Notes: generated from the sequence alone by a model not told the origin. Shown: positions 21,444 to 39,035, counted from the stretch's first letter. The stretch: 64,000 nucleotides of DNA from an uncultured Acidobacteriota bacterium (GCA_963817925.1 CAWFQN010000001.1:11311-75310); one strand, 5' to 3'. Numbers and translations are program-made.

Positions 21444-22043
21444 TCACTCCGGCGAGTACTGCTCCTGCAGTTCGGCGTCGGCTGGGTTCGCGGTGGCGGT
21501 TAAGGCGGTGATTCCGTATTCCAGTCCTTTTTCGAAGGCCTTCAGGTTCAGCTCTCGGAAGCTTGCAGGGAACGGAATCGGCAACTGCTTTGCCGACGGC
21601 ATCGGGGTCCAGCAGGTGTGTGACTGCGGTGAAGAATCCGACCATCACGGAATTCAGCACCATGCGCTTGCCGAGCACCTCGGCGATGCGGGTGGCGGGG
21701 ACGCTGTAGACCTGAATTTCCTTACTCAGAGATCGGAAACTCGCACCAGATCCTCTTCGACAATCAGGATGCCCCCGTCTTTCAACTCGGGCACGAAGCG
21801 CACATAAGCCTCTTGCGACATTACCACGAGGATGTCCGGCTGCGTGACGTACGGGTACAAGATTGGCGAATCGGAAAGCACGAGTTGCGCGCTGCAGGCG
21901 CCGCCGCGGGCTTCCGGGCCGAAGTTCTGAGTCATGGTGGCAAACGCGCCTTGAAAAATCGAAGCGGCCTTGCCAAGGACGATGGCCGAGAGAATCACGC
22001 CCTGGCCGCCGAAGCCTGCGATACGAATTTCAGTTAGCTGCAT
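21444..22043 (-). pseudogene. 2-oxoacid:ferredoxin oxidoreductase gamma subunit, interrupted by two frameshifts
   Basis: Segment 1 (22043-21729) reads MQLTEIRIAGFGGQGV..EEDLVRVSDL and then hits a stop. The middle part, SKEIQVYSVPATRIAEVLGKRMVLNSVMVGFF..AVADSVP, is in another frame. The tail ASFRELNLKAFEKGLEYGITALTA.. is back in the first frame, with its stop at 21444. Confidence 0.8.
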
Positions 22044-22924: not shown

Positions 22925-24078
22925 CGGCTGGCCTCCACGATTACTTTGAGAATGTCCTGCGGGTTGTGAACTCCGCCACCCGCGTGCGATACGGCAAATG
23001 TCTTCGCCCGGCCTGCGGCAGCGCGCTCTACTTCTCGCACCATCTGGCCCAGATTGAGTTCGGGGACGACGAATGCTTTCACTTTGACTGCGAGCCCGCG
23101 GATCTTGCTTTCGGGGAAGGGCCACGCGGTGATCAGTCGCAGTTTGCCGACGCACAGACCCTGTTCACGAGCGGCTTCGATGGCTCGTTGCGCCACGCGG
23201 GAGGTGATTCCGTAGGAGACAACAACGACATCGGCGCCTTCGAGTTGCTCTTCTTCGAACAGGGCAATGCGATCGGCGGCATCGCGAATCTTGCTTTGCA
23301 GACGGCGAACCAATTTGTCTTGGACTTGCGGAGTCATGTTGGGATAGCCGCGTTCGTCGTGAGTCAACCCGGTGACATGAAACTTGTAGCCTTCGCCGGC
23401 GTGCGCCATTTCCGGAACCTGGTCGCCGTTGGTTTCATAGGGGAGGTAGTCGTCAACTGACTTGCGAGTGTGGCGGCGCGGCACGACATCGATCTGGTCG
23501 GCGGGAGGAATCACCACCTTCTCGGTCATGTGCCCCACGACTTCGTCCATCATGAACATCACGGGCACGCGAAATTCTTCGGCCAGGTTGAAAGCTTTGA
23601 TGGTGAGATCAAAACATTCCTGCGGAGAATTAGGGCACAGGGCGATGATCTCATAGTCGCCATGCGATCCCCACTTTGCTTGCATCATGTCGCTTTGTGC
23701 GGGGAGCGTGGGCAGGCCGGTGGATGGTCCCCCGCGCTGTACATCGACAAACACACACGGGGTTTCGGTCATGGCGGCGTAGCCGATGTGTTCCATCATT
23801 AGAGAAAAGCCAGGGCCGGAGGTCACGGTGAATGCCTTGGCTCCGCCCCACACCGCGCCTTGCAGGGTGATCGAGGCCGCGAGTTCGTCTTCCATCTGGA
23901 TAAACGTTCCACCTACGGTCGGGACACGCGAGGCGAAGCGCTCCACGATTTCGGTGGATGGAGTAATTGGGTATCCGGCAGAAAATCGGGCGCCGGCGGC
24001 CAATGCGCCTTCGCAGCAGGCGTGGTCGCCATCGATGAAGTGAGTGCCGGTGAGCACGCCACGAGGATCGGCTTTCAT
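22921..24078 (-). CDS. 2-oxoacid:ferredoxin oxidoreductase alpha subunit
   Basis: 385-aa ORF with GDHACCEGALAAGARFSAGYPITPSTEI and VDVQRGGPSTGLPT. Confidence 0.9.
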   Translation of the reverse strand: MKADPRGVLTGTHFIDGDHACCEGALAAGARFSAGYPITPSTEIVERFASRVPTVGGTFIQMEDELAASITLQGAVWGGAKAFTVTSGPGFSLMMEHIGYAAMTETPCVFVDVQRGGPSTGLPTLPAQSDMMQAKWGSHGDYEIIALCPNSPQECFDLTIKAFNLAEEFRVPVMFMMDEVVGHMTEKVVIPPADQIDVVPRRHTRKSVDDYLPYETNGDQVPEMAHAGEGYKFHVTGLTHDERGYPNMTPQVQDKLVRRLQSKIRDAADRIALFEEEQLEGADVVVVSYGITSRVAQRAIEAAREQGLCVGKLRLITAWPFPESKIRGLAVKVKAFVVPELNLGQMVREVERAAAGRAKTFAVSHAGGGVHNPQDILKVIVEASR

Positions 24079-24362
24079 TGGTCACCTCCGCCAGCCGGAG
24101 TTACCTTGGTTGCGTAAATGGCGAAGTCGGGGCAGAACATTCCGCACAAGTCACAGCCGCTGCACTTTTCCGGATGCACCACGTGCGGTGGATGGTAGCC
24201 CTTGGAGTTGAAAGCGGAAGAGAGCGCGAGCACGTGGGTCGGACAGAACTCCACGCAAAAACCGCAGGCTTTGCAGCGCTCGACGACAACGGAAACACGT
24301 CCTTTTGCCACGGGATCTCCACCCTCGGGGCGGTAGAAAACTCCCCGAAATCTTGACGTCAT
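24075..24362 (-). CDS. 4Fe-4S dicluster ferredoxin-type delta subunit
   Basis: Two CxxCxxCxxxCP motifs (CKACGFCVEFCP, CSGCDLCGMFCP). Overlaps the alpha start (ATGA). Start is ATG 24362, or GTG 24311, which has a better RBS (GAGGGTGGAG). Confidence 0.8.
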   Translation of the reverse strand: MTSRFRGVFYRPEGGDPVAKGRVSVVVERCKACGFCVEFCPTHVLALSSAFNSKGYHPPHVVHPEKCSGCDLCGMFCPDFAIYATKVTPAGGGDQ

Positions 24363-24388
24363 TATTGCGTTGTGGCGGCGCAGCTGGA

Positions 24389-24404
24389 TGTGACAGGAGT
24401 CACG
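24389..24404. promoter_or_regulatory. CRP-type site TGTGA-N6-TCACG upstream of the oxidoreductase operon
   Basis: TGTGACAGGAGTCACG, a 9/10 match to TGTGA-N6-TCACA. It is intergenic, 27 nt from ATG 24362 and 78 nt from GTG 24311. Confidence 0.5.
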
Positions 24405-24535
24405 GACGTAGGTGAGGACGCGCACACGCTGAGGAACCGAGTTTTCCTCAGGTACAGCCTCATGGTGATAGGAGACACAATCACTTGTGCCTTTGATCAC
24501 CGCAATTGGGGAAAGGGTGGACTAAGAATTAGAGA

Positions 24536-25249
24536 GTGGTGGACGAATTGGGACCTTTTCGAGAGGAGGATGCCATGTTTGAAGCTGAGGTTGAAATGGA
24601 AAGGCGTTCAGCGTTTTTGCCGCTGCTGCTGATGGCGTGTCTGGTAACGGCGATTGTGGGTACGGTGGCGTACATCGCATTGCAGGTCCGGGCGAGAGCA
24701 CCGCTCAGTGCGCAGGAGGCGAGCGTGATCGTGGCATCGGCCCTCCAGGGACCCGGTCCCGCGGTCATTCATTTCCACACCGGTCTGGTGAAGCCCAGCG
24801 TCATTGAGAAACCGGGAGACCCTCATTATCGATTGCTGGAAAAGGCCGGCCTTGTGAAATTGGCTTCTGCACCCCGCGGCAGCGAAGTGATCTCGCTCAC
24901 TCCAGCAGGAGAACATCTGATGAGCGTGCTGCCAGGCGTCAGGAAATCGAAGGAAACGGATGGCACGTTCTCCTATCAAGTTCCCCTGGCTCAGCGCCAA
25001 CTGGTGAGCATCACTGCAGTCACCATGAGCGGAGTGAACAACGCAACCATCGAGTACACCTGGAAATGGGTACCCAACCAAATGGGAGACCTGTTTGACG
25101 CAGGCGGCTCGCTGGTGAAGGGCTTCAATCTCTGGGACCGCGAAACCCTGATCAATAAATACGAAGCTGACTTCTATCACGGGAATCCGACCAAATCGAC
25201 ATTAGCGCTAGCGCGGACCGACCAAGGATGGAGAACGTCGGCGCAATAG
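24536..25249 (+). CDS. hypothetical membrane-anchored protein
   Basis: 237-aa ORF with one TM segment (FLPLLLMACLVTAIVGTVAYIAL). No family recognised. The start is uncertain. Confidence 0.45.
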   Translation: MVDELGPFREEDAMFEAEVEMERRSAFLPLLLMACLVTAIVGTVAYIALQVRARAPLSAQEASVIVASALQGPGPAVIHFHTGLVKPSVIEKPGDPHYRLLEKAGLVKLASAPRGSEVISLTPAGEHLMSVLPGVRKSKETDGTFSYQVPLAQRQLVSITAVTMSGVNNATIEYTWKWVPNQMGDLFDAGGSLVKGFNLWDRETLINKYEADFYHGNPTKSTLALARTDQGWRTSAQ

Positions 25250-25342
25250 CGGATGAGAGTGGAAGGTACAACGTAGTCGAGCGTTAAGTTTGAGTATGCC
25301 TGGACTGAAGAAAAGACAGTCTCGGTTCTAAGGAGAAATGTG

Positions 25343-25792
25343 ATGTTTATAAAGAAACTGGCTTTAATATTTACCGCCGTAATCGTTATCACCTGCATGG
25401 TCGCCGCGCAGGACCAACCGCAGGATCAAAATCAGAAAGTGATCCAGCACTCCAACATTCAGCCCACGTCGCCCGCCTCGGGCAAGGAAATGTACACGAC
25501 CTACTGTGCCGTGTGCCACGGAACTGACGGCAAAGGCGGAGGCCCTGCTGCCACTGCGCTGAAGGTTCCTCCCACTGACCTTACTACTCTGAGCAAGAAC
25601 AACGGAGGGAAATTCCCTGCCATGAAAGTGATGTACGCGATCAGCGGCCAATCCGCTGTCCCCGCGCACGGATCCAAGGAAATGCCGGTATGGGGCTCGT
25701 TATTTTGGAACATGAGCCACGGACACGAGGGCGAGGTGCAGCAACGCGAGGCAAACCTTACCAAGTACGTTGAGTCTTTGCAGGCGAAGTAG
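25343..25792 (+). CDS. secreted monoheme class I c-type cytochrome
   Basis: ATG 25343 lies 7 nt after AGGAG. Has a signal peptide, the single heme motif CAVCHGTDGKGGG, and a distal Met region SKEMPVWG. Confidence 0.85.
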   Translation: MFIKKLALIFTAVIVITCMVAAQDQPQDQNQKVIQHSNIQPTSPASGKEMYTTYCAVCHGTDGKGGGPAATALKVPPTDLTTLSKNNGGKFPAMKVMYAISGQSAVPAHGSKEMPVWGSLFWNMSHGHEGEVQQREANLTKYVESLQAK

Positions 25793-25837
25793 TGGGTCTG
25801 GGCAGGATCTGTAAACCGGGAACTGCAAAGCCAGCCA

Positions 25838-25860
25838 GGGCACAAGCCCCGCTTGTGCCC
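25838..25860. terminator. GC-rich hairpin between convergent genes
   Basis: GGGCACAAGC-CCC-GCTTGTGCCC forms a 9-10-bp stem. No clear T tract follows, so terminator function is uncertain. Confidence 0.3.
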
Positions 25861-25929
25861 GCTCTCGCTGTTTCAGAGGATTGAGACGAGCCGTCGTGAC
25901 CGGTGGGCGTGTATTGCAAAAGTGATGTT

Positions 25930-26970
25930 CTAGTCTCCGCTAAGAATTCTCCAGGCTTCGCGGCCGGTGACCATGACGTGCTGCACACTTTTCACCGCCT
26001 TCATGTACTGCGCACGTTCGAAGGCTGAGGGATTGGGACAGCGGATCTGACTCATGCTCCCCTTCATTTGCTGCACTGAATCGTATTCGTGCTTCTCCAT
26101 CCATAACAGCAAGCCATCTTCGATGTATCGAAGATGCCTGATGCCGTTCCGCAGCAGGGTCGAGCAGAGCATGGTAACGTCGGCACCGACCATCAACAGT
26201 TTGACGACATCCTCTGGACCGTGCACGCCGCTGGTAGCTGCCAGGTTGGCTCGGATGCGGCCGGAAAGGATGCCGATCCAGGTCAGCGGAAGCCGCAGCG
26301 CTTGCGGAGTGCTGAGCAACACATTGGGCTGGATCTCCAACTCATCGAGGTTAATGTCGGGTTGATAGAAGCGGTTGAACAACACCAGTCCGTTCGCGCC
26401 CGCCTGATCGAACCGCTTCGCCATATTGGCCATATTGCTGAAAAAAGGGCTTACCTTCACCGCGACGGGAATCGTCACGACCGACTTCACCGCCTTGAGA
26501 ATGTCGAGATATTGTTGCTCGACTGCAGCGGAGGTGAGGTCAGGATCGGTGGGAATGGAGTAGATGTTACATTCCAGGGCGTCCGCTCCGGCCTGCTCGA
26601 TCTGCTTGGCATAATTCGTCCATCCGCCAACCGTGCTCCCGTTTAGGCTCGCGATAATGGGCACCGATACTGCTTCCTTGGCACGGCGGATGTGATTTAG
26701 ATATCCCTCGGGACCCAAGTGGAATTCAGCCGGCTGCGGGAAAAATGAGGCGGCCTCGGCGAAGCTGTCTGTCCCTTCCGCCAGATGATGTTCCAGTTCG
26801 AAGCTTTCCTGCCGCAACTGCTCCTCGAACAGCGAATACAACACCACGGCGGATGCGCCTGCCTCTTCGAGATGGCGTATGCCGTCGAGGTCTTGCGATA
26901 GTGGCGATGCGGAAGCGACCAAAGGCGTGCGGAGCCGCAAACCGAGGTAAGTGGTGCTTAGATCGATCAT
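25930..26970 (-). CDS. dihydroorotate dehydrogenase-like (class 1 DHOD fold) protein
   Basis: Trimmed to ATG 26970, preceded by AGGAGG. Starts MIDLSTTYLGLRLRTPLVASASPL, with VAVKVSPF and GLVLFNR. Lies 49 nt downstream of nifJ. Confidence 0.8.
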   Translation of the reverse strand: MIDLSTTYLGLRLRTPLVASASPLSQDLDGIRHLEEAGASAVVLYSLFEEQLRQESFELEHHLAEGTDSFAEAASFFPQPAEFHLGPEGYLNHIRRAKEAVSVPIIASLNGSTVGGWTNYAKQIEQAGADALECNIYSIPTDPDLTSAAVEQQYLDILKAVKSVVTIPVAVKVSPFFSNMANMAKRFDQAGANGLVLFNRFYQPDINLDELEIQPNVLLSTPQALRLPLTWIGILSGRIRANLAATSGVHGPEDVVKLLMVGADVTMLCSTLLRNGIRHLRYIEDGLLLWMEKHEYDSVQQMKGSMSQIRCPNPSAFERAQYMKAVKSVQHVMVTGREAWRILSGD

Positions 26971-27019
26971 CGTTCCTCCTGGTATGCGAGACGTTGCAAG
27001 CAACGTCTCTACCGCTGTC

Positions 27020-30000
27020 TTACGTTTTCTGTAGAGACGCAGCTGGCTGCGTCTCTTTCGGCTGCGGCGGGTTAGCCGGTTCTTTGCCGTTCTTCCGCTG
27101 CGCCAGATATTCATAGAGGTGGAAGCGGGTCTCGGCGTCATGCTGCGCCTCATGCCAGAGATGCTTGGCCTCGTCCGGATTACTCTTAGTGAGCATCTTG
27201 AAACGCGTTTCCATCTGCAGATAATCCGCAACTTTGCGCGTAGGCGTTCGTGAATCGAGGGTCAGCGGATTCTCGCCCTGCGCCGCACGTTCCGGGTTGT
27301 AGCGATAGAGTAGCCACTGTCCAGAATCGACTGCCGCTTTCTGATTCGACATCGCCGTGGTCATGTTGATGCCGTGAGCGATGCAGTGCGAATACGCGAT
27401 GATGAGGCTGGGCCCGTTGTAGGCCTCAGCTTCGAGGAATGCTTTCAGCGTGTGTTCGTCTTTTGCGCCCATGGCCACGCTTGCGACATAAATGTTGCCG
27501 TAGCTCATCGCGATGAGCCCGAGATCTTTCTTCGGACCCGGCTTGCCGCCAGCGGCGAATTTCGCCACTGCGGCACGCGGGGTGGATTTGGAGGCCTGAC
27601 CTCCCGTGTTTGAGTAGACCTCGGTGTCGAGCACCAGCACGTTCACGTTGCGTCCGCTGGCCAACACGTGATCGAGACCGCCGTAGCCGATGTCATAAGC
27701 CCAGCCGTCCCCGCCAACGATCCAAATGCTTTTCTTGACCAGCAGGTCGGCGACTGCGAGCAGTTGCTTGGCGTCCAACGAATTCAATCCGAGGAGTTTT
27801 TCCTTTAGCAGGTCTACGCGCTGGCGTTGTTCGTAGATGTCGGATTCATCTTTCTGCGGGGAACTGAGTATCGCCGTAGCGAGTTCTTCGCCGATCGTTC
27901 CTGCCACGCGTTTCACCAGTTCCTGTGCGAACTCGGTCTGCTTATCGATCGAGAGGCGGAAGCCCAGGCCGAATTCCGCGTTGTCTTCGAACAGAGAGTT
28001 TGACCAGGCAGGTCCGCGGCCGGCGGCGTTTTTCGTCCAAGGCGTAGTCGGCAGATTGCCACCGTAAATCGACGAGCATCCCGTAGCGTTGGCAATGATT
28101 GCGCGGTCGCCAAACAGCTGCGACATCAGCTTGAGATATGGAGTTTCCCCGCAACCGGAGCAGGCGCCGGAGAACTCAAACAGCGGTTCCTGAACTTGCT
28201 GTTGGCGGATATTGGTGACCTTAATGTTACGGCGGTCGAGTTCCGGGATCTTGAGAAAGAAGTCCCAGTTGTCGCGCTCGGGCACGCGCAGCGGAGGCTG
28301 CGGTACCATGTTGATCGCCTTGAGCCGCGTTTCGGCCTTGTTCTTCACCGGACAAACTTCAACGCAGATGCCGCAACCGGTGCAGTCTTCCGGCGCCACT
28401 TGAATTGTATATTTGAGACTTTGCCATTCTTTGTCGCGGCTCTCCGTGGACTTGAACGTTGCGGGAGCGCCTTGCAGTTCTTTCGTGTCGTAAACCTTGA
28501 TGCGAATCACCGAGTGCGGACAAACCATGGCGCACTTTCCGCACTGGATGCAAATCTTCGGATCCCAGGTGGGAATTTCGAGCGCCAGGTTGCGCTTCTC
28601 CCATTTTGCGGTGCCAGTCGGGAAAGTTCCATCTACGGGGAATGCACTGACAGGCAATTCATCGCCGCGTCCCGCGTAGATCACGCCCAGTACGTCTCGC
28701 TCGAATTCCGGGGCTGAGGGAGAGAACGGTGGCGGCATCTCAATGGTGCTGCTCAATTCGGCCGGGACTTTCACTTCGAACAAGTGCGCCAGAGTTTCGT
28801 CCACGGCTTTCATGTTCTTCTGTACGATCTCTTCGCCCTTGCGGCCGTAGGTGTCGCGAATCGATTTGCGAATCGCCTCGATCGCTTGATCCCCTGGTAA
28901 AACCTTAGAGATGGCGAAGAAGCACACCTGCAAAATCGTGTTCATGCGGCTGCCCATGCCGGTGTCGCGCGCTACCTGGTAGGCGTCGATTACGTAGAAC
29001 TTGGCGCGCTTCGCAATGAGCTGCTCCTGAACCGGACGCGGGAGATGGTCCCAAACTTCATCCTTCCCGAAGGGGCTGTTGAGCAGGAAAGTGCCGCCGG
29101 AAACCAGGGCACTGAGCATGTCATAGCGCTCGAGGAATATCCACTGATGACAAGCCACAAAATTAGCTTTCGAGACCAGATAACTCGAGCGAATGGGCTG
29201 CGGTCCGAAGCGGAGGTGCGAAATAGTTGCCGCCCCCGACTTCTTCGAATCGTAGACGAAGTAGCCCTGCGCGTAGTTGTCGGTGTTCTCACCAATGATT
29301 TTGATCGAATTCTTATTGGCACCCACTGTACCGTCCGCGCCCAGACCGTAAAACATGGCGCGGACAACATTGTCAGGCTCGGTTGAAAACTCGGGATTGT
29401 AGGACAAACTGGTGTGGCTGACGTCGTCCTGAATGCCAATGGTGAAATGATCTTTTACCTGGTGATCGAACTGATCCGCTTTCAGATTGTCGTAGACCGC
29501 CTTGACCATTGCGGGGGTGAATTCTTTGGAAGAGAGCCCGTAGCGGCCACCGACAACCACCGGCGCAGTCAGCCGAGGGCTGTAGCCTGCTTTGACGCCT
29601 TCGTGCAGCGCGTTCACCACATCGAGATAGAGCGGTTCGCCGATCGCGCCCGATTCCTTGGTGCGATCGAGGACGGCGATCTTCCGCACGCTGGCAGGCA
29701 AGGCTTCCAGGAACGCCTGCACCGGGAAGGGACGATACAAATGCACTTTCAGCAGCGCAAGCTTTTCGCCTCGCGCGTTGAGATACTCGACGGCTTCGTG
29801 AGCCACCTCTGCGCCCGACCCCATCAATACGATCACGCGATCGGCATCCGGCGCACCAACATAGTCCACCAAGTGATAGGACCGCCCCACAGCCTCGGCG
29901 AACTTAGTCATTACGGATTGAACGATTTCTGGGCAAGCGTCGTAGTAAGAGTTCGCCCGCTCGCGCATCTGGAAAAACACATCGGGATTCTGCGCCGTGC

Positions 30001-30649
30001 CGCGCAAAACGGGATGGTCCGGCGAGAGGGCGCGCTGGCGATGCTCGATGATGCGATCCATGTTGATGAGCGCCCGCATATCGTCTTCTGCAAGCATTTC
30101 GATTTTGTTGACCTCATGCGAGGTTCGGAAGCCGTCGAAGAAATGCAGGAAAGGAATGCGCGATTCGAGCGCAGCGGCGTGCGCGATCAGTGCCATGTCC
30201 ATGGCTTCCTGCACGGAATTGGAACTGAGCATGGCGAATCCGGTAGCGCGGCAGGACATGACATCCGAATGGTCGCCGAAAATCGAGAGCGCGTGGGTAG
30301 CCAAGGTACGAGCAGAAACGTGGAACGCTGTGGGCGTAAGTTCTCCCGCAATCTTATTCATGTTCGGGATCATGAGCAGCAAGCCCTGGGAGGCAGTAAA
30401 GGTTGTGGCCAGCGAGCCAGTCTGCAGCGCGCCGTGCACAGCCCCGGCGGCTCCGCCTTCGCTCTGCATCTCCATCACGTGGGGAACCGTGCCCCAGATG
30501 TTCTGGATTCTTTGCGACGACCACTCGTCCGCCCATTCGCCCATGTTCGAGGAAGGAGTAATGGGATAAATGGCAATCACTTCGTTAACCCGATAGGCGA
30601 CGTAGGCGACCGCCTCGTTTGCATCCATGGTCTTGAACTTGCGCTTCAT
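27020..30649 (-). CDS. nifJ: pyruvate:ferredoxin (flavodoxin) oxidoreductase
   Basis: About 1209 aa from ATG 30649 (MKRKFKTMDANEAVAYVAYR). Internal ferredoxin domain CIQCGKCAMVCP / CTGCGICVEVCP, and TPP motif GGDGWAYDIGYGGLDHV. Confidence 0.95.
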   Translation of the reverse strand: MKRKFKTMDANEAVAYVAYRVNEVIAIYPITPSSNMGEWADEWSSQRIQNIWGTVPHVMEMQSEGGAAGAVHGALQTGSLATTFTASQGLLLMIPNMNKIAGELTPTAFHVSARTLATHALSIFGDHSDVMSCRATGFAMLSSNSVQEAMDMALIAHAAALESRIPFLHFFDGFRTSHEVNKIEMLAEDDMRALINMDRIIEHRQRALSPDHPVLRGTAQNPDVFFQMRERANSYYDACPEIVQSVMTKFAEAVGRSYHLVDYVGAPDADRVIVLMGSGAEVAHEAVEYLNARGEKLALLKVHLYRPFPVQAFLEALPASVRKIAVLDRTKESGAIGEPLYLDVVNALHEGVKAGYSPRLTAPVVVGGRYGLSSKEFTPAMVKAVYDNLKADQFDHQVKDHFTIGIQDDVSHTSLSYNPEFSTEPDNVVRAMFYGLGADGTVGANKNSIKIIGENTDNYAQGYFVYDSKKSGAATISHLRFGPQPIRSSYLVSKANFVACHQWIFLERYDMLSALVSGGTFLLNSPFGKDEVWDHLPRPVQEQLIAKRAKFYVIDAYQVARDTGMGSRMNTILQVCFFAISKVLPGDQAIEAIRKSIRDTYGRKGEEIVQKNMKAVDETLAHLFEVKVPAELSSTIEMPPPFSPSAPEFERDVLGVIYAGRGDELPVSAFPVDGTFPTGTAKWEKRNLALEIPTWDPKICIQCGKCAMVCPHSVIRIKVYDTKELQGAPATFKSTESRDKEWQSLKYTIQVAPEDCTGCGICVEVCPVKNKAETRLKAINMVPQPPLRVPERDNWDFFLKIPELDRRNIKVTNIRQQQVQEPLFEFSGACSGCGETPYLKLMSQLFGDRAIIANATGCSSIYGGNLPTTPWTKNAAGRGPAWSNSLFEDNAEFGLGFRLSIDKQTEFAQELVKRVAGTIGEELATAILSSPQKDESDIYEQRQRVDLLKEKLLGLNSLDAKQLLAVADLLVKKSIWIVGGDGWAYDIGYGGLDHVLASGRNVNVLVLDTEVYSNTGGQASKSTPRAAVAKFAAGGKPGPKKDLGLIAMSYGNIYVASVAMGAKDEHTLKAFLEAEAYNGPSLIIAYSHCIAHGINMTTAMSNQKAAVDSGQWLLYRYNPERAAQGENPLTLDSRTPTRKVADYLQMETRFKMLTKSNPDEAKHLWHEAQHDAETRFHLYEYLAQRKNGKEPANPPQPKETQPAASLQKT

Positions 30650-30761
30650 AACGTCGACCGCCCTTGTGTTCAATAGAGTCTGTAACTTCCCCGCTCCCAC
30701 TTTGACTGCTTAAGAATGGACGATACGAGGCCTGAACGCAGCAAGGCACATCACAGACGCT

Positions 30762-30777
30762 TGTGACGCACGTCACA
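30762..30777. promoter_or_regulatory. perfect CRP-type palindrome TGTGA-N6-TCACA (site 1, nifJ/regulator divergent region)
   Basis: TGTGACGCACGTCACA, read directly from the sequence. Confidence 0.7.
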
Positions 30778-30785
30778 CACGCTGC

Positions 30786-30801
30786 TGTGAGCAAGGTCAC
30801 A
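30786..30801. promoter_or_regulatory. perfect CRP-type palindrome TGTGA-N6-TCACA (site 2)
   Basis: TGTGAGCAAGGTCACA, centred 24 bp from site 1. Confidence 0.7.
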
Positions 30802-30958
30802 ACGGCGTGTGCCTTGCAGCACAGCCAAACGTTTCATCCGGGCAGACACTGACCTCAGACGGGACTGGCCCCGCTGGCTGTGGACTGCGCAGGAACGCGA
30901 CTCAACCAGTCAGCCCGACCCGAGGCCGTCATAGAAGGGTTTTCGAGGAGGCTAGTTT

Positions 30959-31681
30959 ATGCTCTCACCATACGGAATGGAAATTGTAGAAAGCTGTCTT
31001 ACCTGCAAGCTACGGGCGGATCGGATCTTCTGCGATCTGCCGGCGACCGCGCTGCACGCCTTTGAAAGCATCAAGTATGCGACCGCGTATCCTCAAGGAG
31101 CTGTGCTGTTTGTCGAAGGGCAGCTGCCACGCGGCATCTTCGTGCTCTGCAAAGGCAGCGTAAAGCTTTCCATTAACTCTCCGAACGGCAGAACCATGAT
31201 TGTGAAACTTGCCGAGCCAGGGGAAGTACTGGGATTGAGCGCCACCATCTCGGGCAAACCTTACGAAGTCACGGCAGAGACACTGGACCCCTGCCAGGTC
31301 AACTTCGTAAAGCGCGATGACTTTCTTCGTTTCCTGAAGGACGATGTTGAGGCCTGCTTCAAAGTGGCAGAGCAGTTAAGCGACAAGTATCACACGGCTT
31401 GCCAGGAAGTACGCTCGCTCGGACTGTCCCACTCTGCCGCCGAGAAATTGGCGAACCTGCTTCTGGAATGGAGCTGCAAGAACGGCGAATCTTCCAAGGC
31501 GGAACCGCGGCTGAAGCTGAGGCTCACTCACGAGGAGATCGCACAGATGATTGGGACGTCGCGAGAGACAGTGACCCGGCTGTTTGCTGAAATGAAGAGG
31601 CGTCAGATCGTGCAGTCGAAGGGTTCGACGCTGCTGATTCGAAACACGGCAGCGCTGCGCGAGATCGCAAACCACAACTAG
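30959..31681 (+). CDS. Crp/Fnr-family transcriptional regulator with FNR-like Cys cluster
   Basis: 240-aa ORF with a cNMP-binding-like beta-roll and an HTH (IGTSRETVTRLFAEMKRRQIV). Cys13, Cys16, Cys26 and Cys112 align with FNR Cys20/23/29/122. Confidence 0.9.
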   Translation: MLSPYGMEIVESCLTCKLRADRIFCDLPATALHAFESIKYATAYPQGAVLFVEGQLPRGIFVLCKGSVKLSINSPNGRTMIVKLAEPGEVLGLSATISGKPYEVTAETLDPCQVNFVKRDDFLRFLKDDVEACFKVAEQLSDKYHTACQEVRSLGLSHSAAEKLANLLLEWSCKNGESSKAEPRLKLRLTHEEIAQMIGTSRETVTRLFAEMKRRQIVQSKGSTLLIRNTAALREIANHN

Positions 31682-31781
31682 GCGCACATCCCGTTACTGG
31701 AGGCCGGGCGTCCCCGCCCGGCGGGACGGGCGGGATGGCTGTTCTCCATCGCCCGGATAAGAAACATAACGACTTAGGTCT

Positions 31782-31797
31782 TGTGATCGAGATCACA
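31782..31797. promoter_or_regulatory. perfect CRP-type palindrome upstream of the radical SAM gene
   Basis: TGTGATCGAGATCACA. The arms extend to 8 bp (TTGTGATC/GATCACAA). Centred about 111 nt upstream of ATG 31901. Confidence 0.7.
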
Positions 31798-31803
31798 ATT
31801 TCG

Positions 31804-31819
31804 GGTGATGACTGTCACC
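31804..31819. promoter_or_regulatory. second, weaker CRP-type site (GGTGA-N6-TCACC)
   Basis: GGTGATGACTGTCACC. The core GTGA-N6-TCAC is intact. Lies 22 bp from the perfect site. Confidence 0.4.
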
Positions 31820-31900
31820 GCCTGTCGATTCATCCTCTTCTATTGTTTCGCCAAGGGTGAGCAGCAGAACCACAGGCTAAAGTACATAGGGAGGTTGCAT

Positions 31901-33175
31901 ATGGCATCGGCAAACGGCAACGGGCAGCATTCAGGTCAGGCAAACCAGAACAAGCCGAGACTAGTTTTCTGGGAGTTGACCAAAGGCTGTAACCTCCGCT
32001 GTATCCATTGCCGTGCCAGCGCTACCGAGCTGAGTTCTCCGTCTGACCTCTCAACCCAATCTGCATGCGAGATCATCGATCAGATCGCCGAGGTGTCCAC
32101 TCCAATTCTGGTGTTGAGCGGAGGTGAACCGCTTTTCCGTTCGGATATTTTTCAGTTGGCGCGTTATGGCACCGACAAAGGTCTGCGCGTCGCGTTAGCG
32201 ACGAACGGCACGCTGGTTACCAAGCACGTTGCGCAAATGATCGTCGACAGCGGTGTACGTCGAGTTGCTATCAGCCTGGACGGCGCTGATGCGCTTACCC
32301 ACGACACCTTCCGCGGCATTCCCGGCGCATTCGATGCCGCCATTGCCGGTTTCCGCAATTTGAAGAATCTGGGCATGTCGGTGCAGATCAACACTACGAT
32401 CGCCCGCCACAATGCCCATCAGCTTCCGCTGGTGCTCGAACTGGCGAAGTCGCTGGGAGCGGATGCGCTGCATACCTTCCTGTTGGTGCCGGTGGGCTGC
32501 GGCGTGGATATCGCTGCCGAACAGATGGTTCCGCCGGAGGAGTACGAGCGCATGCTGAACTGGTTCTACGATCGCTCGCTCGAAGGTGGAATCGAGCTCA
32601 AAGCGACCTGTGCGCCACACTACTTCCGGGTGGTTCGCCAACGCCGTGTCGCGGAACGCCGTTCCGAAGCTGCAGCCGCTCAGGCTGCTCATCCGGTGGC
32701 TGAAGTGGCGCAGCATTTGCCGAGTATCGGCCCTACCGAGATGGCAATGCCCGGCTCAACCGGCATCGAACTGAAGCCTCATGGGATCGGACACGCAATC
32801 GGGCACCCCGGCACGCATCCTTCCGACATGAACGCCATGACTAAGGGATGCCTGGCTGGAACCGCGGTGTGTTTCATCTCTCATCAAGGCGAGGTCTATC
32901 CCTGTGGATATTTGCCGGCCCTGGCAGGAGACCTGAAAAAGCAATCGTTCGCCGACATCTGGGAAAACTCGGTGGTGTTCAATCAACTCCGCGACGTCAA
33001 CAACCTGAAGGGCAAGTGCGGCTGTTGCGAGTTCCGCAATATTTGCATGGGCTGCCGCGCGCGCGCCTACGCCGCAACCGGCAACTATCTCGACGAGGAG
33101 CCGTTCTGCGTCTACCAGCCGCGTACGACAAGTTTGAAGGAGAAGGATACGGTCCCGGTGGAAGTCGCACGGTAA
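31901..33175 (+). CDS. radical SAM/SPASM-domain protein, AhbD/NirJ-like
   Basis: Trimmed to ATG 31901, preceded by GGGAGG. Has CNLRCIHC (CxxxCxxC) and a C-terminal Cys-rich SPASM region (CGYLP..KGKCGCCEFRNICMGCRARA). A His/Gly-rich insert lies between the two domains. Confidence 0.8.
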   Translation: MASANGNGQHSGQANQNKPRLVFWELTKGCNLRCIHCRASATELSSPSDLSTQSACEIIDQIAEVSTPILVLSGGEPLFRSDIFQLARYGTDKGLRVALATNGTLVTKHVAQMIVDSGVRRVAISLDGADALTHDTFRGIPGAFDAAIAGFRNLKNLGMSVQINTTIARHNAHQLPLVLELAKSLGADALHTFLLVPVGCGVDIAAEQMVPPEEYERMLNWFYDRSLEGGIELKATCAPHYFRVVRQRRVAERRSEAAAAQAAHPVAEVAQHLPSIGPTEMAMPGSTGIELKPHGIGHAIGHPGTHPSDMNAMTKGCLAGTAVCFISHQGEVYPCGYLPALAGDLKKQSFADIWENSVVFNQLRDVNNLKGKCGCCEFRNICMGCRARAYAATGNYLDEEPFCVYQPRTTSLKEKDTVPVEVAR

Positions 33176-33244
33176 CAGGACGCTCCTCTCGTCGAAGGGC
33201 CAATCACCGTCGAGGCGCGGATCCTGATCATTGACTCCAAATCG

Positions 33245-33595
33245 TTGACCACTTTCTTCCGCGATCAGGGGATCTATCTGTTCATTGCTCTCGTGGTCGG
33301 CTCGACTTTCTGGGCAATTGGCCAGCCCATAAATCCTTTCACCGTCATCTTGTACTCGCTGTGCATTGGCAATTTCGTTTCGCCCCCGATGCAATGGCTG
33401 CATGCCCTGTACGAAAAACCGTCTCCCTATGACTGGCTGATCTTCCTCAGCGTGCTATGCGTCGTGATGTTTCCCGTTTACGCGCTGAGCAGCGTAATTG
33501 TCTGGTGGTTGGCCCCGCCTGATCCGCAATCGCTTGAGCACTTGATCGCCACTGGCTGGAAGATGCCCTTCTTGATCACCTCGTCTATGGCGTGA
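33245..33595 (+). CDS. membrane module (3-4 TM) probably belonging to the downstream PP2C phosphatase
   Basis: 116-aa hydrophobic ORF ending inside a helix (GWKMPFLITSSMA*). Overlaps the next ORF by GTGA. Confidence 0.5.
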   Translation: MTTFFRDQGIYLFIALVVGSTFWAIGQPINPFTVILYSLCIGNFVSPPMQWLHALYEKPSPYDWLIFLSVLCVVMFPVYALSSVIVWWLAPPDPQSLEHLIATGWKMPFLITSSMA

Positions 33596-34407
33596 CGAAT
33601 TTTCTCTACGGCAAGACGAAGGCGCGCCTTGAGCGCCGTAACGTCGAACTGCAGGGCATGGTCCAGTCGGGCGCGGCTCGCCTGGAAATCCACGAGCAAG
33701 AATTGCAACGCGCACGCGATATCCAGCTGTCGCTTTTACCCAAGGAAATTCCTCAGCTTCCGGGAATCGCCGTAGCCACCGCCTGGCGCCCGGCGCGCGA
33801 GGTCGGCGGAGATTACTTCGATGTACTGCGGCTCGACGGCAACAGACTGGCCGTGTGCATTGCCGATGTCTCCGGCAAGGGCGTTCCCGCCGCCTTGCTT
33901 ATGGCCAATGTCCAGGCCAGCCTGCGCGCATCCGTTCGCGACTTGGATAGCCCGGCGCGCGTCTGCGGGATCGTGAACGGCATGCTGTGCGAAAGCGTCG
34001 CTGCTAATAAGTTCGTGACGTCTCTCTGCGGCGTTCTCGATGGCAATACAGGCATGTTTCGCTACTGCAATGCCGGTCATCCTTATCCCATTCTGGTTTC
34101 GGCCGGGGCTGCGCACACCCTGGATCAGGGTGGCGCGGTGCTCGGCGTTTTCCCCTCGTGGAATTACCAAGACTGCAGCGTCAACCTGAAGCCCGGAGAC
34201 AGGCTGCTCCTATTTACCGACGGCATCACCGAAGCCGAGGACGCGCAAGGCGAAGAGTTTGGAGTGGAGAGGGTCGCTGCATTCGTCAAGGCGCACACGG
34301 CCAGCTCCGCTGCTGAATTGAATGAGCAACTGCTGGCGATGGTTTCGGATTTTTGCGGCGCGCATTTCCAAGACGACGCCACCCTGGTGGTTCTCGCCGT
34401 AGATTAA
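33592..34407 (+). CDS. PP2C-family (SpoIIE/RsbU-type) serine phosphatase
   Basis: 271-aa ORF with ARDIQLSLLP, GGDYFDV, VCIADVSGKGVPAALLMA and LLLFTDGITEA. Confidence 0.85.
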   Translation: MTNFLYGKTKARLERRNVELQGMVQSGAARLEIHEQELQRARDIQLSLLPKEIPQLPGIAVATAWRPAREVGGDYFDVLRLDGNRLAVCIADVSGKGVPAALLMANVQASLRASVRDLDSPARVCGIVNGMLCESVAANKFVTSLCGVLDGNTGMFRYCNAGHPYPILVSAGAAHTLDQGGAVLGVFPSWNYQDCSVNLKPGDRLLLFTDGITEAEDAQGEEFGVERVAAFVKAHTASSAAELNEQLLAMVSDFCGAHFQDDATLVVLAVD

Positions 34408-34715
34408 CGTCAAAGCCCGAAATTCTACATCGAACTGAGCTTTTTGGAGCCTTTTCGTTTTTGCGCGGCACGATCAGCAGCCACTTTAACGATCAGCGTA
34501 CTTTAAGGAGGGTTTTCAGCATTCGTGGGGAATCGACTCGAACCGGGCAGACTTTCTCTGTGTCTCTGTGGTGAAATGCCTCAGGGGCTAAAACACGCGG
34601 TTCAGCGTGATATCCCGCAATCTTAGCCTGGCAAGCCCCGCGTTCTGCCCGACTCCAACCGCCGTAACTCAATGAAAACACACGTCGATTACTGCTCGTG
34701 CGCGGAGCCATGCTT

Positions 34716-34730
34716 TGGCACGGAGCATGC
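34716..34730 (+). promoter_or_regulatory. candidate sigma54 -24/-12 promoter upstream of hemA
   Basis: TGGCACGGAGCATGC. The GG-N10-GC spacing is correct and the -24 box is perfect, but the -12 box is ATGC rather than TTGC. Lies 33 nt before the TTG start. Confidence 0.3.
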
Positions 34731-34762
34731 CTTTCCCAGTAGTGGTTTGCAGGAGATAAGTC

Positions 34763-36076
34763 TTGGAACCCTCTCTAATGGTCGTCGGCCTGAACTACCG
34801 AACAGCCCCGGTAGCCGTGCGGGAACGCTTCTGGATCGCCGAAAACCGGCGGTACGAAGCCTTGGCGCAGCTGTCAAGGGCGGAAGGCATCGACGAAGTG
34901 ATTGTCATGGCCACCTGCAACCGGACGGAGTTTTGGCTGTGGGCCGACGACGTCACCCTGGCCGCCAACTCGGTGATGCGGCTGCTCGGAGCCGAATATG
35001 GACTCAAGCTGTGCGAGTGGAAGCACTTCTACCGCTTACTGGATGAAGCTGCCCTTCTCCATATCTTCCGAGTCGCATCCAGCCTCGATTCCATGGTAGT
35101 GGGCGAGCCCCAGGTCGTCTCTCAGGTGAAACAGGCTTGGCAACAAGCGCAGAAGATGGGGGCGACCGGCCGCTTCCTCGACACCGTGCTGCAAAAGGCG
35201 CTCACCGTCTCGAAGCGGGTGCGCAGTGAGACGGCGATTGGCAACGCGGCGGTTTCGATTCCTTATGCCGCCGTCGAGCTCGCACGGCAGATTTTCGGCA
35301 CGCTCGAAAACAAAAATGTTCTCCTGCTGGGCGCGGGCAAGATGAGTGAACTCTCAGCTCGTGGATTGCTCAACCACGGAGCCAGCTCTGTCCTGGTGAT
35401 TAATCGCACACTCGAGCATGCGGCTGAACTTGCCGCGAAGCTGGGTGGCCTCGCGATCCCGTTCGAGGAGCGCTGGCAACACATGGCGGAAGCCGACATC
35501 ATCATCAGCTCGACATCGTGCCCACATACGATTCTGAGCCGCGAGGAAGCCGAGATCCTGATTAGCGAACGCAAGAGTCGGGGGCGTAAAGATCAGCCTC
35601 TGGTGATCGTGGATATCGCGATGCCCCGCGACATCGACTCCGGCGTGCGCGACGTCGAGGGGGTTTTCCTGTATGACCTCGATGACCTGGAAAACGTCGT
35701 CGACCACAACGCGGGCGAGCGCGAGGCTGCCGCAGCCGCCGCACAGAAGATTCTGCAAGCCGAGGCGCAAGGTTTCCGTCGCAAGCTGATGGCGGAGCGC
35801 GTAGTTCCGACCATCGTCGCTCTGCGCCTGCGGCTGGACGAGATTTGCCGGCAAGAACTGGATTCCTTTCGACAAGAGAACGGACCGTTCTCCAAAGACC
35901 AGGATGAAATGTTAAACGCAGTCATGTCCCGGATGACACAAAGAATCGCCGGGTCCCTGGCCCGCGAACTAAAGGAACTTCCAGAAAAAGTGCAGCAGGA
36001 ACAGATGACCACTGCTTTGCGGCAACTGTTCCATCTTCAACCGCCCGAAACGGCGCTTGCCGGCACCAGACCCTAA
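34763..36076 (+). CDS. hemA: glutamyl-tRNA reductase
   Basis: 437-aa ORF with [26 protein letters not shown] and [13 protein letters not shown] 34763 lies 7 nt after AGGAG. The alternative ATG is at 34778. Confidence 0.95.
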
Positions 36077-36094
36077 AAGGAGTAGCGAAAACCC

Positions 36095-36763
36095 ATGGAA
36101 AAAGTGGAGCAGACAGCGCACTTTGTATCTCATCCCCAAACCGCCGAACGCGGAAGCTGGACTGGTACACAGGCGTACATGCTGGCAGTCTTTTGCCTGG
36201 TGCTGGGCGTAGCCCTCGGCTACCTGTTTCGCGGCTCCGCTTCGCCTGCTTCAGAGACAACCGTAGCGCTTCGTGCCAACGACAGCGCGGCAAGCACGTC
36301 GACGCAGGCCCAAGTGACTCCCGCGCAACAAAAAGAAATGTTGAACCAGTCGGTCGCCCCGCTGCTTGAGACCCTGAAGACCAACCCTGACGACGTCGAC
36401 ACAATTGTGAAGGTAGGCAATCTGTACTACGACGGGCAGCAATACCAGGAGGCGGTCAAGTACTACCGACTCGCAGCCAAGAGCCAGCCTAAGAACGCAG
36501 ACTTGTTAACCGATCTGGGCACGTCGCTCTGGTATACCGGAGACGCCGACGGGGCCATCGCCGAGTTCCAGAAGGCGCTGAAGTATCAGCCCGATCATCC
36601 CGGAACGCTGTTCAACCTGGGCATAGTTCGCTGGCAAGGCAAGAGCGATCCCAACGGCGCGGTCGAAGCCTGGGAAGAGTTGCTGCAAAAGAACCCGAAC
36701 TACCCACAGAAGCAGCAACTGGAGGAATACATCGAAAAGGCCAAACAGCACTCCAAGGGGTAA
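36095..36763 (+). CDS. TM-anchored TPR protein (CcmI/NrfG-like C-terminal TPR)
   Basis: 222-aa ORF with one TM (AYMLAVFCLVLGVALGYLF) and three TPR units. Paralogue of the gene at 59134..59838. Confidence 0.7.
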   Translation: MEKVEQTAHFVSHPQTAERGSWTGTQAYMLAVFCLVLGVALGYLFRGSASPASETTVALRANDSAASTSTQAQVTPAQQKEMLNQSVAPLLETLKTNPDDVDTIVKVGNLYYDGQQYQEAVKYYRLAAKSQPKNADLLTDLGTSLWYTGDADGAIAEFQKALKYQPDHPGTLFNLGIVRWQGKSDPNGAVEAWEELLQKNPNYPQKQQLEEYIEKAKQHSKG

Positions 36764-36845
36764 GGGGATTGTACGCCTTTGGAGTGTAAGGATCTGACTT
36801 TTGATCTTTGTCCCTTTTCTTATTCCATAGATCAAGCGGGCAAAT

Positions 36846-37301
36846 ATGAATGCGAAGAATCAACCAACCGCCAACTTCCCCAGGATTTCACGAATTCTTG
36901 TGGCCACCGACTTTTCGGATCAGGCGAGCAAAGCTTTGGAGTGGGCCCAGTCTCTTGCCGCGGCATTCCGAGCGAAGTTGGTTCCACTGCATGTCATCGA
37001 CATCTTTAGCTTGGCAGAAACAAGTTGCGTGACCGCTGGCCTTGATCCGCTTCCCCTGCTTCGAGAGCAAGCCCGGCAGCGTATGGATGGGCTAAAGCAG
37101 CTGATACCCGATGCAGAGACATTGGTTCGCGAAGGTTCGCCGCGACCCGCGATTGTGGATGCCGCATTGGAATTGAAGTGCCAAATGATCATCATGGGAA
37201 CCCATGGCCGTTCAGGCTTGGCGCATTTACTGCTGGGCAGCGTCGCAGAGTATGTCGTCAGAAACAGTAAGGTACCCGTGCTCACTGTCCGCACGCATTG
37301 A
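36846..37301 (+). CDS. universal stress protein (UspA family)
   Basis: 151-aa ORF with RILVATDFSDQASKALEWA, IIMGTHGRSGLAHLLLGSVAEYVVRNSKVPVLTV. Confidence 0.9.
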   Translation: MNAKNQPTANFPRISRILVATDFSDQASKALEWAQSLAAAFRAKLVPLHVIDIFSLAETSCVTAGLDPLPLLREQARQRMDGLKQLIPDAETLVREGSPRPAIVDAALELKCQMIIMGTHGRSGLAHLLLGSVAEYVVRNSKVPVLTVRTH

Positions 37302-37470
37302 CACCGGATGCACGCAGTTGCGCCCCCGTTCACTAAAACCTTCGATCGCGCTGGGAAATCCATGAATCCGGAATACAAAGACCTGCGCCAGGCTGATCCG
37401 TCCGATGACAGCTTCTCGCTCGCATTCTTGCAACGGAAGGACTCTGCGCGTGCCCTGGCGCACATACGCC

Positions 37471-37486
37471 TGTGCGCTCCGTCACA
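37471..37486. promoter_or_regulatory. CRP-type site TGTGC-N6-TCACA upstream of adh
   Basis: TGTGCGCTCCGTCACA, a 9/10 match. Centred about 223 nt upstream of ATG 37702. Confidence 0.35.
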
Positions 37487-37654
37487 TACAGGTCGCACGG
37501 AATTGGCGACCATGGCTTTTGATTTCATGCGGTAACTCCTTTCGGCTCCGCTGGACGAACAATCGAAGAACCCAAGGGAAGTAAGTGAAGTAATGTGCTC
37601 GGCAGAAAGCAGGCGGGCGTTTCGCAGTTTAATTCAAATTGATTCCGAGTCCGC

Positions 37655-37672
37655 TGGACTGCAAGCAGTCCA
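37655..37672. promoter_or_regulatory. perfect 18-bp palindrome (8-bp arms, 2-bp spacer) just upstream of adh
   Basis: TGGACTGC-AA-GCAGTCCA. A third TGGACT copy lies at 37681. Ends 30 nt before the start codon. Confidence 0.4.
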
Positions 37673-37701
37673 ATAGACGGTGGACTCCCAGGAGACATAC
37701 T

Positions 37702-38787: not shown

Positions 38788-38936
38788 GTTCCTAGGTCAC
38801 CTGAGTTCTCGGATCGTGTGATTCTGCGTTGCGCAAGTTAAGCAAGAGGCGGATTCCTGCGCTCGCCGCACAATGCGAGCAACGACGTCCGCCTCTGTCC
38901 ATTTTTTGAGCGGGTTGGGCAACCATCACAGATAGA

Positions 38937-38952
38937 CGTGACGAGGCTCACC
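38937..38952. promoter_or_regulatory. CRP-type core site CGTGA-N6-TCACC upstream of the aldehyde dehydrogenase gene
   Basis: CGTGACGAGGCTCACC, preceded by TCACA-N6, the same alternating half-site pattern as at nifJ. Centred about 91 nt before ATG 39036. Confidence 0.4.
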
Positions 38953-39035
38953 GACGCTCGCCAACTTCAGCGCTATGTTCGTCGCACACGGGGAATTATC
39001 GCGTTCTGAACATTCATAAATAAGGAGATATCGTC

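Follow-up and report, generated by a model that had tools for sequence, protein, structure and literature searches.

A 64,000-nucleotide stretch of DNA from an uncultured Acidobacteriota bacterium (GCA_963817925.1 CAWFQN010000001.1:11311-75310; this whole stretch is called the window below) contains a crowded intergenic region between nifJ and a gene for a Crp/Fnr-family regulator. Six alternating TGTGA and TCACA half-sites lie there, which raises the question of how these sites are organized, which protein reads them and which genes they serve. A previous, sequence-only reading had described them as a single phased array of CRP-type half-sites. We propose instead that they make up two promoters facing away from each other, in each of which two dyads lie 22 base pairs (bp) apart, and we consider it likely that these promoters answer to an FNR-like, autoregulated class-II activator of an anaerobic regulon, probably one that senses oxygen with an iron-sulfur (Fe-S) cluster.

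Half-sites between nifJ and the regulator gene

Profile and domain matches agree with the earlier assignment of both flanking genes: nifJ encodes pyruvate:ferredoxin (flavodoxin) oxidoreductase on the minus strand (27020..30649, ATG at 30649; TIGR02176, 1870 bits), and the plus-strand gene at 30959..31681 encodes a regulator of 240 amino acids (aa) with cNMP_binding and HTH_Crp_2 domains. Direct reading of the sequence likewise confirms the six half-sites and their positions. The order is GCAAGGCACA (30741-50), TCACA (30751-55), N6, TGTGA (30762-66), N6, TCACA (30773-77), N8, TGTGA (30786-90), N6, TCACA (30797-801), N6 and TGTGCCTTGC (30808-17), and successive half-sites start 11, 11, 13, 11 and 11 bp apart. 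The 10-bp inverted repeat said to bracket the array is present and belongs to a longer repeat with arms of 13 nucleotides (nt; 30738-50 and 30808-20) that are 92% complementary. The perfect dyad TGTGA-N6-TCACA, with 5-bp inverted halves and a 6-bp gap, occurs three times in the window: at 30762..30777 (site 1, TGTGACGCACGTCACA), at 30786..30801 (site 2, TGTGAGCAAGGTCACA) and at 31782-97, with spacer-edge bases c..g, g..g and t..a, respectively; sites 1 and 2, as well as site 3 below, are given without a strand. Dinucleotide-preserving shuffling yields an expectation of 0.05 perfect dyads, close to the earlier estimate of 0.06, and three or more were reached in none of 100 shuffles. All three flank the regulator gene, and every perfect dyad and every paired site in the window is intergenic.

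Conservation points to two divergent promoters

A protein-based scan retained 80 species-level genomes from 531 candidate stretches that encode a relative of the regulator. The 80 loci were picked by regulator similarity alone (81-100% identity), blind to DNA motifs; the relatives of the window come from peat, bog and fen metagenomes and belong to the lineage Terriglobales. Upstream of the regulator gene, a perfect TGTGA-N6-TCACA is found in 74 of the 80 loci, and two of the other six are off by one base. In an alignment anchored on this site, there is next to no information in the 6-bp spacer or in the upstream flank; the profile of site 2 across the 74 loci reads TGTGAGg.a.aTCACA. By these comparative criteria the dyads are under selection and can be regarded as functional.

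Two perfect dyads are present in 32 of the 39 loci with a divergent nifJ versus 2 of the 41 without nifJ, and 34 of these 41 have one perfect dyad. The centre of the nifJ-side dyad keeps a steady distance of 106-127 bp to the nifJ ATG. The distance between the two perfect dyads is 24, 25, 26, 28, 35, 36, 41, 84 or 164 bp, depending on the species, and because of this variation the phasing of about 11 bp across the array is not conserved. A phased array of six half-sites therefore does not hold as a unit; the comparison assigns each perfect dyad to a promoter of its own, one of nifJ and one, divergent from it, of the regulator gene.

Each of the two strong dyads has a weak partner. On the regulator side, what had been read as the sixth half-site is the left half of site 3, a degenerate dyad with the sequence TGTGC-N6-GCACA (TGTGCCTTGCAGCACA, 30808..30823). 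With three or fewer mismatches allowed, 72 of the 74 loci have such a site at +22 relative to site 2, and other offsets between 16 and 30 are almost never occupied. Towards nifJ, the first TCACA is really the TGTGA half of a weak element on the minus strand, arranged as a mirror image (30740..30755). This element lies exactly 22 bp from site 1 and reads TGTGATGTGCCTTGCT, a perfect TGTGA half together with a conserved CCTTGCT. In loci with nifJ this element has the conserved consensus TGTGAC.TGcCTTGCTGCG, with a right half that is conserved but non-consensus. The layout is weak-strong followed by strong-weak, with the pairs 30740+30762 (nifJ) and 30786+30808 (regulator), and the start-to-start spacings of 22, 24 and 22 bp correspond to two mirror-image promoter modules. 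The bracketing repeat does not survive as a closing element. It is perfect in the closest relatives only, elsewhere 5-7 of its 10 positions are complementary, and 109 broken changes stand against 9 compensated ones. Because it decays in this way, we regard the repeat as a by-product and not as a helix.

Conservation extends well past the dyads into the segment between site 3 and the regulator start codon (30824-30958; GCACAGCCAAGCGTTTCATCC.GACGGACACTGAC…), the middle of which is prone to indels and is deleted in loci L008, L014, L028, L036 and others. RNAalifold found no consensus pairs, and thus no structured 5' leader of the regulator mRNA, in an alignment of 25 leaders, and an Rfam scan of 30500-32000 returned no RNA family, with two sub-threshold chance matches.

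A second copy of the regulator, 85% identical, is encoded on the same contig about 515 kilobases (kb) away (L078). Its upstream region keeps the weak dyad and the conserved leader, and its strong dyad is reduced to the right half (TCACA). Site 3 is also retained in the paralogue locus L070, and L071 retains the downstream part of the block only. Where a genome has two regulator paralogues, as is also the case for L010 and L071, each copy may have taken over a part of the regulon.

The 22-bp pair and its distance to the predicted -10 region

Dyads with two or fewer mismatches show no overall excess in the window (27 versus 22.4 expected). Pairs of such dyads exactly 22 bp apart, on the other hand, occur four times versus 0.005 expected from 200 shuffles. 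With a relaxed threshold (three or fewer mismatches per dyad, five or fewer in sum), seven pairs are found at 22 bp and none at 18-21, 23, 25 or 26 bp. This distribution identifies two 16-bp nGTGA-N6-TCACn dyads 22 bp apart as the predicted functional unit.

The position of this unit relative to the transcription start can be estimated from the promoter of ahbD, the gene that follows the regulator gene. In all 67 loci with ahbD in this place, the intergenic region contains nGTGA-N6-TCACA, AATTTCN, nGTGA-N6-TCACC, 21 nt and TATnGT, in this order. In the window, the pair on the plus strand (31782..31819) consists of TGTGATCGAGATCACA (31782-97) and GGTGATGACTGTCACC (31804-19), 22 bp apart, and the predicted -10 hexamer TATTGT (31841..31846, plus strand) stands 21 nt past the proximal dyad. 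Since the proximal dyad lies 21-22 nt before a -10-like hexamer, the dyad centres would be located about 41.5 and 63.5 bp upstream of the expected start. This distance between the proximal dyad and a -10-like hexamer is observed at the ahbD loci, upstream of an aldehyde dehydrogenase gene and in metagenomes.

For the promoters of the regulator and nifJ, we applied the geometry seen in the metagenome set and upstream of ahbD. The predicted -10 of the regulator promoter is GACACT (30845..30850, plus strand), 21 nt past site 3 and within the conserved block GAcACTg. In the nifJ promoter it is CATTCT (30713..30718, minus strand; CATGCT in relatives), 21 nt past the weak element, and the alignment of nifJ upstream regions conserves GTcCAT.CTTa.gcAGtCaa. 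Both hexamers are weak. Sites 1 and 2 are accordingly predicted as strong distal sites at about -63.5 of the nifJ and regulator promoters, and the nifJ-proximal weak element and site 3 as the respective proximal sites at about -41.5. A -35 hexamer is lacking in these promoters. Dyads at -41.5 and -63.5 of the predicted start sites, with the proximal one replacing the -35 hexamer, would be a layout typical of activator-dependent class-II promoters.

Two other promoter elements were considered and rejected. A sigma-54 reading of cGGCgtG-N4-TTGCA (30803-30818) fails in relatives, where both GG and TTGC are lost (cf. atagcatgtgtctggcag). The motif CCTTGC(A/T) as a -35 hexamer would sit 20-25 bp from the -10-like hexamer, and against the dyad it is shifted by 5 bp from one promoter to the other. 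CCTTGC (GCAAGG on the opposite strand) recurs in or beside the weak dyads of nifJ and the regulator (30741-30749, 30812-30817) and is also found at 48406-48411 within TGTGATGAACCTTGCA, upstream of a multihaem cytochrome gene. Its position relative to TGTG is shifted by 5 bp, and it does not match a -35 element or a sigma-54 element.

Paired motifs in metagenomes

A pattern scan of metagenomes provided 122 paired motifs for the analysis of geometry and 120 loci (700 kb) for that of gene content; 22-bp tandem-repeat arrays among the 120 matches (e.g. L081, L086, L106, L136) were excluded from the statistics as mimics. Among the 122 motifs, TAnnnT peaks 21-22 nt past the proximal (outer) dyad, with 13 and 9 occurrences versus a background of about 2. 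A homologue of the regulator (43-82% identical) is encoded in 30 of the 120 loci, often adjoining the motif. The genes that face a motif with a correctly placed xAxxxT code for a small Cys-rich protein of about 140 aa without a match in Pfam (13 of 16), tandem universal stress proteins (9 of 11) and AhbD-like enzymes (3 of 3), as well as for c-type and multihaem cytochromes and OsmC.

The Cys-rich protein (about 130-145 aa; …LLEVLKFELEFLE.GGYGR…FEDSPTCMN…C..C…) is the commonest product of motif-facing genes in soil metagenomes (L113 3589-4293 and neighbours; L093, L098, L120, L123, L135, L137). Its gene is usually divergent from a regulator paralogue, and no homologue is present in the window. 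The excluded arrays are head-to-tail repeats of 22 bp with GTGA-N6-TCAC, for example TGTGACATGACTCACTCACATG or CGTGACGGTTGTCACGAAACAA, usually with no open reading frame nearby (L081 957-1060, L086 1561-1640, L106 2649-2788, L109, L136 9-88, L184, L192). They may represent either repeat arrays or regions in which another regulator has multiple operators.

The regulator protein

The regulator matches PF00027, PF13545 and PF00325 and has the beta-roll, the long dimerisation helix and the Crp-type helix-turn-helix of this superfamily. Its AlphaFold model (predicted local distance difference test score 89.9) gives template modelling (TM) scores of 0.8-0.84 to GlxR, Mycobacterium tuberculosis CRP, Clr and holo-FNR. 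None of the curated NCBIfam models was matched at cut-off; NF008732 (CRP) scored 74.9 versus 266 bits and NF008365 (Fnr) 43.5 versus 228 bits.

For comparison by BLASTP we used Escherichia coli CRP and FNR sequences whose residue numbering agreed with the literature. The recognition helix SRETVTR aligns with SRETVGR of CRP and TVETISR of FNR, and R180, E181 and R185 of CRP (helix positions 1, 2 and 6) are all matched. Among 97 family representatives with 37-61% identity to the regulator, 82 have R-E-x-x-[TS]-R. Because the three base-contacting residues of CRP are present, the predicted specificity is TGTGA rather than TTGAT. The CRP-type helix and the 74 of 80 loci with a perfect dyad speak for the earlier claim that the sites are of CRP type and tied to the adjacent regulator; this link, which depends on co-occurrence and on the residues of the recognition helix, can be called well supported, if indirectly. 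The cAMP-contact residues E72, R82 and S83 of CRP are unmatched in the BLASTP alignment, in which G-E-L...E-R-S of CRP faces G-L-S...P-Y-E.

The N-terminus of the regulator contains the motif C13-x2-C16-x8-C25. Further cysteines are Cys64 and Cys112, and none occurs past residue 173. Cys112 aligns with Cys122 of FNR (BLASTP) and is kept in 48 of the 97 representatives, compared with 75 for Cys64. Cys13, Cys16, Cys25 and Cys64 occur together in 61 representatives, 31 of which also have Cys112. Since the family counts favour Cys64, located in the VLCKG strand, we take it as the family-conserved fourth cysteine. Judging from jelly-roll topology, its strand should adjoin the one that bears Cys112.

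Predicted targets in the window

Besides nifJ and its own gene, the regulator is predicted to control the AhbD-like gene (31901..33175, plus strand), which encodes a radical-SAM/SPASM haem b synthase of the oxygen-independent type. The protein scores 481 bits with TIGR04545, slightly below the cut-off of 500 bits. A GC-rich hairpin, CCGGGCG-tcccc-GCCCGG, followed by GGGACGGGCGGG and without a T-run, lies just 3' of the regulator stop codon (31695-31735) and has a match to CRISPR-DR29 below threshold (E = 0.21). It is probably a terminator or an insulator that separates the regulator gene from the ahbD promoter; a scan of 30600-31950 for terminators gave no match.

A further pair, TGTGACAGGAGTCACG and GGTGAGGACGCGCACA (24389..24426, minus strand), with the -10-like hexamer AATAAT (24366..24361, minus strand), precedes korDAB (from 24311 down to about 22034), which encodes a 2-oxoacid:ferredoxin oxidoreductase with delta, alpha and beta subunits. 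Divergent from it, GGTGATAGGAGACACA and TGTGCCTTTGATCACC (24464..24501, plus strand), with AAGAAT at 24524-29, lie upstream of a gene for a conserved hypothetical protein of 224 aa (24575-25249) and a cytochrome c gene. Both pairs are conserved in four genomes (L204-L207) in which the neighbouring 224-aa protein is 70-77% identical. In these, the pair of the 224-aa gene is held at -108 to -112 from the ATG, and the spacer between the two pairs changes length, so that the back-to-back design is repeated. This test used diverged homologues of the 224-aa neighbour; an exact match to the KorD-like ferredoxin gave two identical intergenic regions, which are uninformative. The 224-aa protein has no Pfam or NCBIfam match and 744 homologues, the named ones all from Terriglobales, and downstream of its gene there is always one for a class-I cytochrome c of about 149 aa.

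Two more pairs, for which the evidence comes from the window only, stand upstream of a Zn-dependent alcohol dehydrogenase gene (37639-38787) and an aldehyde dehydrogenase gene (39036-40583). The former is a weaker pair (CGTGCCCTGGCGCACA and TGTGCGCTCCGTCACA, 37449..37486, plus strand); the latter consists of TTGGGCAACCATCACA and CGTGACGAGGCTCACC, followed after 21 nt by TATGTT (38974-79; whole element 38915..38979, plus strand). Both genes are probably among the targets.

The part of the window from 22034 to 40583 resembles an island of low-oxygen metabolism with genes for the korDAB-like enzyme, pyruvate:ferredoxin oxidoreductase, the AhbD-like enzyme and the alcohol and aldehyde dehydrogenases. 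It also contains a dihydroorotate-dehydrogenase-like gene (25930-27231), a universal stress protein gene (36846-37301), a gene for a TPR protein and, downstream of the regulator gene like the AhbD-like gene, a SpoIIE-type phosphatase gene and hemA. Beyond it follow genes for ResB (46671-48161) and a multihaem cytochrome c (48518-50011).

Discussion

An oxic/anoxic role of the sites, as envisaged in the sequence-only reading, is plausible since the predicted targets are oxygen-sensitive or anaerobic enzymes. FNR and Anr control hemN and thereby oxygen-independent haem synthesis, to which the AhbD-like target is analogous. E. coli FNR further resembles the regulator in its predicted fold (TM of about 0.8 to holo-FNR), the N-terminal cysteine cluster, the cysteine at the position of Cys122, a proximal site about 41.5 bp from the predicted start and the anaerobic nature of the targets. 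It differs in its half-site, TTGAT (TTGAT-N4-ATCAA) instead of TGTGA, and in its recognition helix, V-E-T-I-S-R instead of R-E-T-V-T-R, with Arg in place of Val208 and Thr in place of Ser212, so the regulator lacks the combination of E209, S212 and R213 with TTGAT-N4-ATCAA that marks FNR proper. Its cysteines are also spaced differently (C-x2-C-x5-C with C20, C23, C29 and C122, versus C-x2-C-x8-C here, where the family-conserved fourth residue is Cys64), and the sites described here are obligatory 22-bp pairs. The Fnr proteins of Bacillus and Paenibacillus, which are FNR-type oxygen regulators, do have the consensus TGTGA-N6-TCACA, the same as found here. The cluster ligands of Bacillus Fnr are the C-terminal Cys227, Cys230 and Cys235 together with Asp141, whereas our regulator has an N-terminal motif and no C-terminal cysteines. 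The fnr gene of Bacillus subtilis is itself activated by Fnr. That TGTGA-N6-TCACA serves a Crp/Fnr protein other than a cAMP-responsive one is already known from these proteins and from HcpR1.

HcpR1 of Desulfovibrio desulfuricans leads to an alternative in which sites and regulator are the same and the signal is another one, namely nitric oxide (NO) or haem, a cysteine thiol-redox switch or a small metabolite in the beta-roll pocket. HcpR1 binds the perfect TGTGA-N6-TCACA, also upstream of its own gene, autoregulates, and shares R, E and R at positions 1, 2 and 6 of the recognition helix. It is thought to sense NO through haem and regulates nap and nitrosative-stress genes, and several inverted repeats of graded affinity in one of its promoters have been interpreted as class III. 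The half-conserved Cys112 also leaves room for such a signal, as the cofactor is not readable from the sequence. Still, the N-terminal cysteine motif and the fixed 22-bp pairing have not been described for HcpR1, the three N-terminal cysteines and a fourth conserved one form an FNR-like layout, and the targets are classical oxygen-sensitive or anaerobic functions instead of genes for NO detoxification; no hcp gene was noticed beside the sites, though no dedicated search for hcp was run. We therefore judge a signal other than oxygen to be unlikely. We give even less weight to a regulator that acts mainly as a repressor or autorepressor whose proximal dyads occlude the promoter. The proximal dyads do overlap the -35 region, and many Crp/Fnr genes are negatively autoregulated, including fnr, crp and fixK2. 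However, the missing -35 hexamer and the -10-like hexamer at a fixed class-II distance are the signature of activator dependence, and it would be physiologically odd for an FNR-like sensor to repress anaerobic enzymes.

The dyads could also be operators of a protein other than the adjacent regulator, i.e. of a Rex-type repressor that responds to the NADH/NAD+ redox state or of cAMP-CRP, and we consider this very improbable. Rex operators (TTGTGAA-N4-TTCACAA) share the TGTGA/TCACA core and serve redox or fermentation targets, and Rex regulons in other phyla include fermentation and haem genes. The inner spacer bases of our sites do not fit, since across the 74 loci G is the first spacer base and A or G the last (TGTGAG....ATCACA), and the A....T of Rex is not seen. 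Rex is moreover an unrelated Rossmann-fold repressor, whereas the dyad tracks a Crp/Fnr gene whatever the neighbours are, as the 30 of 120 metagenome loci with a regulator homologue also illustrate. CRP of E. coli has an identical core dyad, the same recognition residues and a site at -41.5 that replaces the -35 hexamer, but without the cAMP-contact residues the regulator does not qualify as a cAMP-responsive CRP. The sites of two-site CRP promoters are usually 40-50 bp or more apart and do not abut at 22 bp. Finally, the nested inverted repeats might form a DNA cruciform or an RNA hairpin with the 10-bp bracket as closing stem. The 83-nt stretch folds at -39.1 kcal/mol (z = -2.65), yet any palindrome cluster folds well, the bracket is decayed in distant species as described above, and the arms lie anywhere from 24 to 164 bp apart. 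Loci without nifJ lack the left arm and the region lies upstream of both predicted start sites, which makes this explanation scarcely credible.

Several observations weigh against our own proposal of an FNR-like class-II activator. CATTCT and GACACT, proposed as -10 hexamers for nifJ and the regulator, are poor, the nifJ-proximal element has just one good half-site, and a scan of 30600-31950 for consensus sigma-70 promoters found none. Cys112, the counterpart of FNR Cys122, occurs in about half of the family, and the conserved Cys64 has no counterpart in FNR. The core shared with Rex operators belongs here as well, and the paralogue at L078 in the same genome leaves the choice of the site occupant between the two copies.

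With these points in mind, the FNR-like activator could work as follows. The product of 30959-31681 would bind the dyads as a Crp/Fnr-family dimer and read TGTGA through its CRP-type Arg-Glu-x-x-x-Arg helix. Most likely it would hold an oxygen-labile Fe-S cluster, and its binding to DNA would be limited to low oxygen. Under these conditions two neighbouring dimers would act as class-II activators of transcription, with the proximal dyad standing in for the -35 hexamer. Targets would be nifJ, ahbD, korDAB and the divergent operon for the hypothetical protein and cytochrome c, probably also the alcohol and aldehyde dehydrogenase genes, and control of its own gene would create positive feedback. 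Mechanistically this is an ordinary type of switch, in which nothing is unusual except the strict pairing of the sites and the different arrangement of the cysteines. A more specific version, which we put forward tentatively and regard as possible rather than probable, is that the family works obligatorily as an abutting dimer of dimers with a non-canonical set of cluster ligands made up of Cys13, Cys16 and Cys25 and, from the beta-roll, Cys64. The high-affinity anchor dyad at -63.5 would in this case load the weak dyad at -41.5 by protein-protein cooperativity, and a sharp threshold response to anoxia would be the consequence. In a limited literature search, we found neither a study of an acidobacterial Crp/Fnr regulon nor a description of the 22-bp strong/weak pairing at -63.5/-41.5 or of C-x2-C-x8-C with Cys64.

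The operator grammar, i.e. nGTGA-N6-TCACn twice, 22 bp apart and 21-22 nt before the -10 hexamer, could be used directly to predict anaerobic gene control in thousands of metagenome-assembled genomes from soil and in metatranscriptomes. It provides a first predicted regulon that comprises pyruvate:ferredoxin oxidoreductase, 2-oxoacid:ferredoxin oxidoreductase, the AhbD-like synthase, alcohol and aldehyde dehydrogenases, cytochromes, universal stress proteins and the Cys-rich protein. Few bacteria in peat and acidic soils are as abundant as the Acidobacteria of the Terriglobales, and little is understood of how they respond when waterlogged peat turns anoxic. If the tentative dimer-of-dimers version is correct, the regulator would be the master anaerobic switch of this dominant group, whose members are usually seen as aerobes, and would govern ferredoxin-dependent oxidation of 2-oxoacids, fermentation, anaerobic haem synthesis, cytochromes and universal stress proteins.

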